This document shows, one piece after another, positions 5,649-28,935 of a stretch of 64,000 bases of DNA. The stretch is from Escherichia coli (GTDB lineage: Bacteria; Pseudomonadota; Gammaproteobacteria; Enterobacterales; Enterobacteriaceae): NCBI RefSeq assembly GCF_003991155.1, contig NZ_CP031293.1, one strand, 5' to 3'. Within the stretch, counting starts at the first letter, position 1; each line of letters starts with the position of its first letter. A program made the translations under genes and the position numbers. The notes below the pieces were generated by a model. That model worked only from the letters and a program-made list of their open reading frames with translations. It searched no databases and had not been told where the DNA came from.

Positions 5649-7496
5649 TCAGATTGACAGCTTCTTGACGCGCTTGCCGCCATATAGCAGGTTTACGATG
5701 GCACGCGTACCGACAATCGCGGTAAACATCGACGTCGCCACACCGATACCGGTAGTAATCGCGAACCCTTTAATTGCCCCGGTACCCACTGCGTACAGGA
5801 TGGTGACTTTAATCAGCGTGGTGATGTTCGCATCGAAGATGGAACTGAATGCGCCACGATAACCTTCATCAATTGCCTGTTGAACAGTACGTCCGTTGCT
5901 CAACTCTTCTTTAATACGTTCGTTGATCAGTACGTTCGCGTCGACCGCTACCGCAAGGGTTAAGACGATACCCGCGATACCTGGCATACTCAGCGTTGCG
6001 CCTGGCAACAGCGACATAATACCGACGATCAAGATCAAGTTGGCAATCAGAGCACTGGTCGCAATCAGACCAAACTTCTTATAGAAGATGATCATGAACA
6101 GAATAGAAACCAGCAGACCGGCAAGGCAAGCCTCCAGCCCCTGCTCAATGTTCTGCATACCCAGGGTCGGGCCAATTGTACGTTCTTCAACAATCTGAAT
6201 CGGCGCGATCAACGCACCGGCACGCAGCAGCAGTGACAGCTGACGGGCTTCGTTCGGGTTGTTGATGCCGGTGATACGGAAGCTGTTACCCAGACGAGAC
6301 TGGATGTTAGCGATGTTAATCACCTCTTCCTGTTTCACCAGAACCGCACGACCGTTAGCATCTTTCTTGCCGCTGTCTTTGTACTCCACAAACAGGGTCG
6401 CCATCGGTTTGCCGATGTTGTCCTTGGTGAAGTTAGACATAATGTTGCCACCTGCGCTGTCGAGCGAGATGTTAACCTGCGGCTGGTTGTATTCGTCCTG
6501 GCTGGAAGTGGAGTCGGTGATATGGTCACCGGTCAGAATTACGCGTTTGTACAGCACAACCGGCTGACCTTCGCGGGTCTGTTTCACTTCAGAGTCGCCC
6601 GGTACGCGGCCGGATGCCGCAGCGGCCTGATCAACGTTGGTGTTTACCAGACGGAATTCCAGCGTTGCCGTCGCACCCAGAATCTCTTTCGCACGCGCGG
6701 TGTCCTGAATACCTGGCAGTTCAACAACGATACGGTCAGCACCCTGACGCTGAACCACCGGCTCCGCCACGCCAAGTTGGTTTACACGGTTACGCAGGAT
6801 ATTAATGTTCTGCTGCACCGCATATTCACGCGCTTCACTCAGACGAGCATCGCTCATTACCGCACGCAGCTGGTTGCTGCCCTGGCTGCTAATCACCAGG
6901 TCCGGATGGCGCTTGCTCAGATACGCAATGGCTTCATCACGAGCTTTAGCATCGCGGAAAGTGATGCTCAGGCCGTAGTTGTTTTCTTTACGAACGGTGG
7001 TATACGGGATGCCCTTTTCACGCAGGTCGCTGCGCAGGCTATCGATGTTTTGTTCCTGGAGTTTGCCAAGCGCGGTGTCCATATCCACTTCCATCAGGAA
7101 GTGAACGCCGCCACGCAGGTCAAGGCCGAGCTTCATCGGCTCAGCATGAATAGCTGCCAGCCAGCGCGGCGTTGCCGGGGCAAGGTTAAGCGCCACGACG
7201 TATTTGTCACCCATAACGCCCATTAATGCTTCACGAGCGCGCAGCTGGGTGTCAGTGGAGTCGAAGCGCGCAAGAATAGCGCCCTCTTCCAGTGCCACAG
7301 ACTTAGCAGTTATTTTTTCTTCTTGTAACGTTTTCTGGACCTGGATCAGCGTTTGCTCACTGGCGGCGACTCCGCGCGCACCAGTGATCTGAACAGCCGG
7401 ATCCTCACCAAACAGGTTGGGAAGCGCATACAGCAGACCGATGACAATCACCACGATCAGCATGACGTACTTCCACAAAGGATAACGGTTTAACAC
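5649..7496 (-). CDS. secD: Protein translocase subunit SecD
   Basis: 615 aa, [36 protein letters not shown]...; stop 10 bp upstream of the secF start. Confidence 0.95.
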
Positions 7497-7523
7497 GGCA
7501 ATTCCCTTAGGGAAAAATTTTAA

Positions 7524-7856
7524 TTACAGCGCCTTCATGGTGCCTTTCGGCAGGACGGCAGCTACGAAGTCACGTTTAATAACTACTTCAGTGGTGTCAT
7601 TCAGCGCGATAGCAATGTAGCCGTTTTCCGCTACTTTGGTTACGCGACCAACCAGGCCACCGTTCGTCAGAACTTCATCACCTTTGGCAATGGAGTCCAT
7701 CAGCTTTTTGTGTTCTTTGGTGCGCTTCTGCTGTGGACGCAGGATCATGAAATAGAAAATCAGACCGAATACCACCAGCATCAAAATCAAAGACATCGGG
7801 CTACCTTGCGCCGGTGCACCCGTTGCCGCTACCGCATCAGAAATAAAAAAGCTCAT
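7524..7856 (-). CDS. yajC: Sec translocon accessory subunit YajC
   Basis: Track ORF 7524..7886; the recognised YajC starts at MSFFISDAVAATGAPAQGSPMSLILMLVVFGLIFYFMILRPQQKR (110 aa). Confidence 0.9.
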   Translation of the reverse strand: MSFFISDAVAATGAPAQGSPMSLILMLVVFGLIFYFMILRPQQKRTKEHKKLMDSIAKGDEVLTNGGLVGRVTKVAENGYIAIALNDTTEVVIKRDFVAAVLPKGTMKAL

Positions 7857-7878
7857 TAAATTTCCCTCATTATTAATA

Positions 7879-9021
<1,143 letters not shown>

Positions 9022-9060
9022 TCAGAAAAACAGTCCAACGTTTAAACCAGCGCCGCGGAA

Positions 9061-10131
9061 TTACTCCCCGACGCGCTCATTAATTGCCTGCGGATTGTAC
9101 GTGATAAACATCGCATCACCGTAACTAAAAAAGCGATATTTCTCTTCTACCGCCGCTTTATAGGCGTTCATAGTGTGTTGATAGCCGGCAAATGCCGAAA
9201 CCAGCATAATCAGCGTCGATTCAGGAAGGTGGAAGTTCGTCACCAGCGCATCGACCACTTTGTACTGGAAGCCGGGATAGATAAAGATTTGGGTATCGTC
9301 AAAGAACGGTTCGATGAGATCGTTTTTCGCCGCCTGGGCCGCGCTTTCCAGCGAACGTACCGAGGTGGTGCCAACCGCAATCACCCGGTTACCGCGCGCT
9401 TTCGCCGCCAGTACCGCGTCTACCACATCCTGCGGTACTTCAGCGTATTCCGAGTGCATGATGTGATCTTCAATGGTGTCGACGCGCACCGGCTGGAAGG
9501 TGCCCGCACCAACGTGCAGGGTGACAAACGCCATCTCCACGCCTTTGGCGCGTAATTTTTCCAGCAAAGGTTCGTCAAAATGCAGACCAGCGGTCGGGGC
9601 TGCAACCGCGCCCGGTTTTTCGCTATAAACGGTTTGATAAAGTTCGCGGTCAGCGTCTTCGTCCGGACGGTCGATATACGGCGGCAGCGGCATATGGCCG
9701 ATGCTGTTGAGGATATCCAGTACCGAACGATCATCATTAAATTCGACTTCAAACAGTGCGCCGTGGCGCGCGGTCATTGTTGCGTTAATACTTTCGTCAT
9801 CGCCCAGCAGCAGTTCTGCGCCAGGTTTTGGCGCTTTCGAGGCGCGAATATGCGCAAGAATGCGTTTGTCGTCGAGCATCCGCTCAACCAGCACTTCAAT
9901 CTTGCCGCCGCTGGCTTTACGCCCAAACAGACGCGCCGGGATCACGCGGGTATTATTAAAAACCAGAAGATCGCCGGGGTTGAGCTTATCGAGTAAATCG
10001 GTGAAAGTACCGTGCGTCAGCGCGCCCGTCGGCCCGTCCAGCGACAGTAAACGACAGCTACTGCGTTCAGGCATGGGATAGTGGGCAATCAGGGATTCGG
10101 GCAATTCAAAGGAGAAATCGGTAACGCGCAT
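9061..10131 (-). CDS. queA: S-adenosylmethionine:tRNA ribosyltransferase-isomerase
   Basis: 356 aa, [33 protein letters not shown]... Confidence 0.95.
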
Positions 10132-26649: not shown

Positions 26650-27561
26650 ATGCTGTGGTTCAAAAATTTAATGGTTTACCGTCTTAGCCGCGAGATTTTG
26701 CTGCGTGCAGAAGAGATGGAAAAACAGCTAGCCTCGATGGCATTTACCCCATGCGGCAGCCAGGACATGGCGAAGATGGGCTGGGTTCCTCCGATGGGAT
26801 CGCACAGCGATGCGTTAACGCACGTTGCCAATGGTCAAATTGTTATCTGCGCGCGCAAAGAAGAAAAAATCCTCCCGTCTCCGGTGATTAAACAGGCGCT
26901 GGAAGCGAAAATCGCCAAACTGGAAGCGGAACAGGCGCGTAAGCTGAAGAAAACCGAAAAAGATTCGCTGAAAGACGAAGTGCTGCACTCTCTGCTACCG
27001 CGTGCTTTCAGCCGTTTTAGCCAGACAATGATGTGGATCGACACGGTTAACGGTTTGATTATGGTGGACTGCGCCAGCGCCAAAAAAGCGGAAGATACGC
27101 TGGCACTGTTGCGTAAAAGCCTGGGGTCGTTACCGGTTGTACCATTGAGCATGGAAAACCCGATTGAACTGACGCTGACCGAATGGGTACGTTCCGGCAG
27201 CACGGCACAGGGTTTCCAGCTGCTTGATGAAGCCGAGCTGAAATCGTTGCTGGAAGATGGCGGCGTGATCCGCGCGAAGAAACAAGATCTGACCAGCGAA
27301 GAGATCACCAACCACATTGAAGCCGGAAAAGTGGTGACTAAACTGGCGCTTGACTGGCAGCAGCGCATTCAGTTTGTGATGTGCGACGATGGTTCGCTCA
27401 AGCGTCTGAAGTTTTGCGACGAGCTGCGCGATCAAAACGAAGATATCGACCGTGAAGATTTCGCCCAGCGCTTTGATGCCGATTTCATCCTGATGACTGG
27501 TGAACTGGCAGCGTTAATTCAAAACCTGATTGAAGGATTAGGTGGCGAAGCACAACGTTAA
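26650..27561 (+). CDS. rdgC: Recombination-associated protein RdgC
   Basis: Track ORF 26578..27561; the recognised start is [36 protein letters not shown] (303 aa). Confidence 0.93.
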
Positions 27562-27580
27562 TTGCTGATTTGCCTTTAAT

Positions 27581-27617
27581 GCCGGATGCGACGCCTGCGG
27601 CGTCTTATCCGGCGTAC
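27581..27617. repeat. REP element downstream of rdgC
   Basis: gccggatgcgacgcctgcggcgtcttatccggcgtac. Confidence 0.7.
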
Positions 27618-27638
27618 GAATCCACACCAGGCATATAA

Positions 27639-28094
27639 TCATTCGCTACGGCGGGCAATAATTTTTAGCGCAGCAATATTATGCGTCTTACGCCGTAACT
27701 GATCTAATCGTCTCATCCCTATTCGCCTGTCAGCAGCACGCAGAATATTCACTAACCCCCATTTATCGCTGGTAAATTGTTTTGTTAACAGCTCCGCTTT
27801 TGGGGTATCAATATATTCACGCAATAAATCTGAAATTGAACAAATATCCGTCAGGTATGGATACCAGCAAGTTTCACCGTGAAAATTACGCACTCCACCG
27901 TTACCTGCAATAAAGTCTTTCGGGTAATCCCAGACCACGTTTTTATCCAACGTGATCCAATAACGAGGTAAATCGGTGCTTCCACCATTTTGGCTGCGCA
28001 TGGGATAACGGGTACAGTGAATTTGCAGGTTGATCGTTGGCGTCAGTATGTCATAGATCTCCCGTTGTAACTTGCTCCATGGGCGTTGTGTCAT
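27639..28094 (-). CDS. Conserved hypothetical protein, 151 aa (likely the ykiA-locus gene)
   Basis: ATG at 28094 with a GAGGA ribosome-binding site (gaggaaaaacaATG); MTQRPWSKLQREIYDILTPTINLQIHCTRYPMRSQNGG...; sits where I recall ykiA between rdgC and ppnP; function unknown. Confidence 0.55.
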   Translation of the reverse strand: MTQRPWSKLQREIYDILTPTINLQIHCTRYPMRSQNGGSTDLPRYWITLDKNVVWDYPKDFIAGNGGVRNFHGETCWYPYLTDICSISDLLREYIDTPKAELLTKQFTSDKWGLVNILRAADRRIGMRRLDQLRRKTHNIAALKIIARRSE

Positions 28095-28579
28095 TGTTTT
28101 TCCTCAAGCCGGTGACGCGCTTCACTGCGAATTTTCCGCGTTGCCCCGGTTTTCACTAAATCACGTAACAGCGAAAGATCGGGTTGATCGACAAATAAGA
28201 GTAATGATGGATCCTCTTTTAATCACATCGTTTTCACATCGGCAGCCAACTGTGGATTATTAATAACCAACGCCCGATCCTGAGGCTCAGTCAATGTCGT
28301 TAACAAAGACGCCGGGGTATGTGCGTTGCGCAATGCCGTTTGGCGCAAATGATCATTGCGACTTTGCAGCAATGCACGCCACCATTCATCATCTGATTTA
28401 TCTTTTATCGTCGCCAGTTCCGCAACAATATCTGGAGATCTTCGCTGATATTTATATCAACCTTGATGAATTATGAATATATCGGAAATCGAAAAAATCC
28501 TAGCAAAGGAAATATTATTATGGGTTAAAGAGAGGACATTTCAGAAAAATGCCCTCCCGTTCAAGGGGAAGGCGAGAAA

Positions 28580-28864
28580 TTACAGATAGCGGCACAGATA
28601 AGAGGTGGGTTCGGCAACTTGCAGATGAAACTCGCTGTGACCGGGAACATTAAACACCGAACCGGCTTCATACACTTGCCAGTCGGTCGCGTCAGGCAGT
28701 AACACATTCAGCGCGCCACTGATTACCGTCATCTCTTCAGGCTCAGCGGTGCTGAAGGTGTATTCGCCTTCAACCATAACACCCACGCTGGCGCGACCAG
28801 TGCTGCTGCTGGAAAAGCCGATCGATTTCACTTTGCCGGAAAAGTACTCATTACTTTGAAGCAT
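28580..28864 (-). CDS. ppnP: Pyrimidine/purine nucleoside phosphorylase PpnP (YaiE)
   Basis: 94 aa, [68 protein letters not shown]... Confidence 0.93.
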
Positions 28865-28935
28865 AAACTGGCCCTGTCTGGTAGTTGAACATCTACTTCA
28901 CTATAGGGGCCAGAGGCGCTGGCTGTCACGCAAAA

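Follow-up and report, generated by a model that had tools for sequence, protein, structure and literature searches.

A decayed two-gene islet between rdgC and ppnP of Escherichia coli, comprising the ykiA pseudogene and an intact gene of the SF0329 family

The locus between rdgC and ppnP in the window, that is, the whole 64,000-nucleotide stretch of Escherichia coli DNA (contig NZ_CP031293.1) analyzed here, is very probably a decayed two-gene islet in which ykiA is a pseudogene and the SF0329-family gene is intact, conserved and probably still expressed. The ancestral Escherichia islet would have consisted of a gene for a 759-aa protein followed by an overlapping SF0329 gene. A single deletion would have removed everything between the ATG of the 759-aa gene and approximately codon 645, leaving the upstream region untouched, and a TGG-to-TGA change would afterwards have broken the leftover ykiA frame.

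Positions 27500–28900 of the window are 100% identical to the genome of E. coli strain 2016C-3878, and the gene order is mak, rdgC (plus strand), the ykiA/SF0329 locus, and then ppnP, aroM, yaiA and aroL (minus strand). The SF0329 gene (27639–28094, minus strand, stop codon included), supported by the list of open reading frames, HMM matches and RefSeq, is separated from the ppnP stop (28580) by a spacer of 485 bp (28095–28579). As the initial annotation of this DNA had it, the gene is an intact frame of 151 aa with an ATG and a ribosome-binding site; the Shine-Dalgarno core GAGG (28105–28102, minus strand) lies 7 nt before the ATG. In the identical strain 2016C-3878, RefSeq labels this frame "SF0329 family protein" and the remnant a DUF2773 domain-containing pseudogene ("internal stop; incomplete; missing N-terminus"). 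Public annotation thus already describes both the ykiA remnant and the SF0329 gene, each under a named family, and the two are largely ordinary. The islet is bounded by a probable ppnP terminator just past the ppnP stop (28551–28573, minus strand), formed by a hairpin of 8 pairs, including 6 G-C pairs, and a T-run (ATTTTTCTGA). At the other end, the stop codons of rdgC and SF0329 are 77 bp apart, and this gap contains a 15-nt imperfect palindrome (GCCGGATGCGACGCC / GGCGTCTTATCCGGC, 27581–27613) that looks like a REP element; its tail motif, CTTATCCGGCCTAC, is present in 4 copies in the window as against 0.17 expected.

The 151-aa protein, which had been thought to belong to no recognizable family, matches both NCBIfam NF049912 (SF0329_fam; 93.7 bits, cutoff 60) and Pfam PF25753 (80.7 bits, cutoff 27). 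Its residues 6–148 align with positions 2–160 of the 161-position NF049912 profile, and all 19 invariant columns of a 49-sequence SF0329 alignment, in which many invariant residues are polar, are present in it. By these matches, it is an SF0329-family protein over its full length. A characterized family would have overturned the initial annotation; SF0329 is one in name but has no assigned function. Our literature searches on ykiA, ykiD, SF0329 and DUF2773 returned nothing on function. The dN/dS ratio of the gene is 0.06 in the comparison with E. albertii and ranges from 0.06 to 0.23, values by which SF0329 is under purifying selection.

Upstream of SF0329, we identified an open minus-strand frame of 77 codons that begins after a stop codon at 28457–28459 and extends to a TGA at 28223–28225, with ATG, GTG and TTG all absent from the frame until its last codons and no ribosome-binding site at its 5' end. 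Past the TGA, this frame runs for 43 further codons (LKEDPSLLLFVDQPDLSLLRDLVKTGATRKIRSEARHRLEEKQ*), up to a stop that shares an ATGA with the start of SF0329. Since the TGA is in frame and the same frame continues to the ATGA overlap, ykiA is a single remnant (28091–28456). The start-less frame noted earlier is present, with its upstream stop and the peptide quoted for it, but the TGA had not been recognized as lying in frame, and the remnant extends to 28091. Its translation, conceptual and with the stop read as X, matches Pfam PF10971 (DUF2773) with 141.6 bits (cutoff 25) over positions 1–81 of 81, and on this score the match is homology and not chance. Together with the translation, an alignment with positions 6592–6933 of the O145:H28 contig (L004) delimits the pseudogene proper to 28091–28432 on the minus strand, which corresponds to the last 113 codons and the stop of the 759-aa gene. 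The codon that is TGA in the window (minus strand) encodes Trp in the K-12-like, O145, O157 and Escherichia sp. MOD1-EC7003 alleles, and the presence of TGG in all of these marks the TGA as a later change, private to the lineage of the window. Translation ending there would lack the C-terminal 43 residues and with them roughly half of DUF2773. What would be a functional gene for the DUF2773 solenoid protein thus has its start and ~645 codons deleted and carries an in-frame TGA; the ykiA frame is a pseudogene remnant.

The view that this frame is what remains of the upstream gene in a unit that once had two genes was borne out by comparison with other strains, in which the longer intact gene was found. 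E. coli O145:H28 RM13514 has at this site a 2280-bp gene (759 aa) with SF0329 directly after it, and O157:H7 likewise has the intact 759-aa gene and SF0329. The intact pair lies between rdgC and ppnP, overlaps as ATGA, and is ~97% identical to the window at the DNA level in the shared parts. In pairwise blastn, window positions 27500–28432 correspond to 6001–6933 of the O145:H28 contig and 28438–28900 to its positions 8873–9335. These two blocks show that the window lacks positions 6934–8872 of that contig (1.94 kb), a segment beginning with the A of the start codon (gene start 8871, minus strand) and reaching approximately codon 645. The deletion junction consists of 5 nt, CTCCA (28433–28437, minus strand), to which neither flank of the intact allele aligns. 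On the far side of the junction, the 113 bp 5' of the lost ATG (28438–28550, minus strand), which comprise the native promoter and leader region of the destroyed gene, are retained at ~98% identity to O145:H28. They include a sigma-70-like site (minus strand; –35 at 28544–28539, –10 at 28522–28517) assigned by consensus match only.

Other lineages show further stages and separate instances of this decay. In STEC005-type genomes, the ykiA remnant is gone as well and the leader is joined directly to the SF0329 ATG. In E. albertii NBRC 107761 (L012, ~7750–8000), the MNR start of the large gene is kept but is followed by a different internal deletion and stop codons, while SF0329 is intact and 86% identical to the window protein; from this arrangement, E. 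albertii lost the large gene independently. Among 5426 complete E. coli genomes, the deletion junction with the ykiA remnant is present in 4545, the body of SF0329 in 920 (~17%), 80% or more of the intact pair of genes in 444, and at least 80% of the window-type query in 53. By subtraction, and only approximately, some 4500 genomes are K-12-like and 420 have SF0329 otherwise arranged. The SF0329 alleles found beside the intact large gene look slightly damaged in their sequences: that of O157:H7 (L095, 1446–1895) ends in ...ALKNYCPP instead of ...ALKIIARRSE, and that of O145 (L004, 6140–6595) carries I13N, Q24H, S86P and L130F at positions conserved in the family.

The census also bears on the suggestion that the ykiA frame encodes a working small protein, translated from a non-canonical start or by read-through. 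Its persistence in ~4545 of the 5426 genomes, the regulated promoter ahead of it in K-12 and the open frame of the K-12-like alleles would be in keeping with such a protein, as would pN/pS values among alleles of 0.24–0.6, which are not clearly 1 but rest on substitution counts too low to tell neutrality from constraint. We nevertheless regard it as very improbable, and this option, which the initial annotation had offered, is not supported. The frame has neither a start codon nor a ribosome-binding site at its 5' end, it is broken by the TGA in the window strain at the cost of the C-terminal 43 residues, the STEC005-type strains have deleted it entirely, RefSeq labels it a pseudogene, and, in the model of the intact protein described below, the alpha-solenoid is continuous and the surviving piece comes out of its middle.

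SF0329 itself is probably still expressed in the window strain, to judge from its upstream sequence, because the native 5' region is kept, the ribosome-binding site and ATG are as in K-12, and in K-12 this start yields YkiD. The 45 nt around the ribosome-binding site and ATG are identical in the window and the K-12-like allele, where a deletion within SF0329 leaves the 27-aa MTQRPWSKLQRKTHNIAALKIIARRSE. This peptide is YkiD, made of the first 11 and the last 16 residues of SF0329, and YkiD is among the small proteins that were detected by chromosomal tagging (PMC6001520, Table 1). In K-12, a promoter within the ppnP–ykiA intergenic fragment responds to activation by BglJ-RcsB, which is the only regulation examined for ykiA in that study (PMC3950696). 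Transcription of SF0329 in the window strain would start from the retained ykiA promoter, and translation from its own GAGG and ATG. The ykiA and YkiD of K-12 are thus two leftovers of one two-gene islet, which cautions against taking YkiD for a purpose-built small protein. In the literature that we searched, no paper states that YkiD is a deletion stub of the SF0329 gene.

Close relatives of the 759-aa protein were found only in Escherichia. An exhaustive HMMER search retrieved 172 relatives, of which ~35 are 750–810 aa long and 25–35% identical over their full length; the relatives match Pfam LRV, LRV_2 and HEAT. An AlphaFold2 model built from a 41-sequence alignment (pLDDT 91.5) consists of an N-terminal hydrophobic helix, a beta-solenoid (~68–176) and an alpha-solenoid (186–758), the last 81 residues of the protein being Pfam DUF2773. 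On this model, the alpha-solenoid runs without a break, and the remnant in the window is a piece out of its middle. Foldseek searches of the PDB with the model returned only HEAT/ARM scaffolds (PP2A A subunit, importins; TM-scores 0.1–0.36). The N-terminus, MNRINILVICMVVFFMTGNACA|TEW, is predicted to be a Sec signal peptide, a comparable hydrophobic N-terminal stretch is seen in 30 of the 41 relatives, and no catalytic domain was found in the protein. From its sequence and model, we infer that the 759-aa protein may be an exported binding scaffold.

SF0329 is spread far more widely. A word-indexed search gave 540 matches, with 55–66% identity among the best 120, and genome matches at 45–66% identity come from Leminorella, Photobacterium, Campylobacter, Leptospira, Bacteroidales, many Bacillota, Deferribacteraceae and spirochaetes. 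The AlphaFold2 model of the protein is confident (pLDDT 89), and this fold has no match among solved structures. Neither SF0329 nor the solenoid protein gave anything meaningful against PDB chain sequences (best E 0.15 and 0.54), and neither matches a catalogued defence protein in PADLOC-DB 2.0 at E up to 1. SF0329 is compact, very conserved, widely transferred and endowed with a confidently predicted fold that lacks a solved counterpart, and E. coli strains differ in it naturally.

The overlap of the two genes in E. coli raises the question of whether SF0329 serves the solenoid protein specifically, as a chaperone, a regulator or an immunity factor, and has been orphaned in the window. Besides the ATGA overlap, this reading can draw on one contig from a different enterobacterium, where the order is the same, with a diverged solenoid gene of 755 aa between ppnP and SF0329, the solenoid protein being ~30% and SF0329 77% identical to their E. 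coli counterparts. Beyond that contig, the pair was found only beside ppnP in Escherichia, and SF0329 occurs in 70 or more further genomes with no solenoid relative nearby; the solenoid relatives, for their part, also occur without SF0329. The solenoid protein has a predicted signal peptide and SF0329 has none, and the large gene has been lost twice independently with SF0329 still intact and under constraint. With these observations, a dedicated partnership is quite unlikely, and the distribution of SF0329 is independent of that of the solenoid gene. An enterobacterial contig from run SRR28530750 (L093, 5001–7241) encodes a 746-aa solenoid relative (49% identity) between sprT and a sugar transporter gene, with no SF0329 gene; a solenoid relative at the sprT site without SF0329 indicates that the large gene also moves alone.

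We also looked for other partners. In 80 genomes from many phyla, SF0329 has no conserved neighbour, and an all-against-all comparison of 534 neighbouring proteins revealed no partner conserved across taxa, the only synteny being within Campylobacter. The larger genes found upstream of SF0329 elsewhere were considered as partners and rejected as housekeeping genes (gltX, purL and genes for isocitrate dehydrogenase, acyl-CoA dehydrogenase, an aminotransferase and a chitinase).

What the neighbourhoods do share, in part, is their architecture. Of 74 loci, 33 place SF0329 in a run of five or more small co-directional genes, and 10 in a run of at least eight. Pfam searches with 149 neighbours from 23 loci detected Imm17 (twice), SUKH-1 (twice) and SUKH_6 (twice), along with DUF4240 (three times), DUF4261 (twice), DUF6985 (twice), DUF2314 and DUF1963. 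Apart from DUF2314, we take these DUFs to be typical of polymorphic-toxin loci. Imm17 and DUF2314 both appear in the survey of polymorphic toxins by Zhang et al. 2012 (PMC3482391). On two metagenomic contigs (L009, 1726–12483, and L010, 635–8756), a tyrosine integrase gene is followed by ~20 small co-directional genes, most of them with no Pfam match, that include Imm10, a macro-domain protein, DUF7716 and SF0329. These two arrays are ordered differently, as if their cassettes had been shuffled. In Mediterranea sp. An20 (L055, 8713–13905), the gene just downstream of SF0329 encodes a 1731-aa protein in which TPR repeats are joined to DUF4261, DUF7832 and DUF4253, domains that elsewhere are separate small proteins in similar arrays.

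SF0329 is usually accompanied by arrays of small genes, known immunity families among them, and may be a self-sufficient, cytoplasmic and horizontally spread cassette of the conflict type that, for example, neutralizes an incoming toxin; we offer this as the leading but tentative reading, one that leaves considerable room for doubt. The protein would act alone in the cytoplasm and would not need the solenoid protein. Arrays with known immunity families are found in a subset of loci only; against this reading, SF0329 stands alone among housekeeping genes in 26 of the 74 loci, and no toxin gene adjoins it in any locus, in the sample of neighbours scanned. Nor does it lie directly downstream of a toxin in E. 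coli, where the upstream domain is an alpha-solenoid repeat. Its identity of 50–66% across phyla is above what is usual for immunity proteins, PADLOC gave no match, and the many invariant polar residues would fit an enzyme too.

An enzyme, or a small nucleic-acid handler tied to RNA 2'-phosphate or ADP-ribose chemistry, is indeed another way to read SF0329, with its ~20 invariant residues, many of them polar, and its high conservation across phyla. In an uncultured Bacilli MAG (L081, 2162–3199), a 345-aa ORF joins SF0329 in frame with a KptA/Tpt1 RNA 2'-phosphotransferase domain (PF01885), and five loci have macro-domain genes in the vicinity of SF0329. The fusion is confined to one lineage, a single 90%-identity cluster (44 sequences) among 3617 matches, and was rejected as a recurrent architecture for that reason; the macro-domain neighbours are not independent of one another, since all are in related Bacteroidales-type arrays. 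As no fold or sequence similarity of SF0329 to any enzyme was found, we consider this chemistry an unlikely function.

Returning to the conflict-type cassette, a more specific form of it is that SF0329 is a self-sufficient protective protein, anti-toxin or anti-phage, which has escaped cataloguing, has a predicted fold without a solved counterpart, and has spread horizontally through gut and environmental bacteria; we put this forward as a speculation with a minor share of our belief. If it were true, carrying SF0329 (~17% of complete E. coli genomes) or, in the rest, the YkiD stub could alter which competitors or phages a strain withstands. In the literature searched, no paper states that SF0329 occurs among immunity-type genes or that it lacks a structural match.

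Among known systems, SF0329 can be compared with the orphan immunity genes in polyimmunity or recombinase-associated arrays of polymorphic toxin systems (Zhang et al. 2012, PMC3482391), being likewise small, cytoplasmic and patchy across phyla. Like them, it varies in presence among strains of one species and is often found in small co-directional runs with Imm10, Imm17 and SUKH genes, and, as with those in recombinase-associated arrays, it lies once beside a tyrosine integrase. Unlike them, it has no cognate toxin in the sample of neighbours scanned, is unusually conserved and has many solitary copies, and it is absent from the named Imm families. The solenoid protein resembles the LRV/HEAT scaffolds (PP2A A subunit, importins) in its alpha-solenoid (residues 186–758), including the part that survives in the window, but the likeness is one of fold class only, as the bacterial protein has a predicted signal peptide and an N-terminal beta-solenoid and, unlike those scaffolds, is probably exported.

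At the level of the locus, ykiA of K-12 (b0392) shares with the window its position, the 1.94-kb deletion junction, the promoter region, and the ribosome-binding site and ATG of SF0329. K-12 has an additional 372-bp in-frame deletion within SF0329, whereas the window keeps all 151 aa; conversely, the ykiA remnant of the window has the TGA that is lacking in the K-12-like alleles. The O157:H7 and O145:H28 pair, in contrast, keeps the whole 759-aa gene, of which the window has lost codons 1 to ~645.
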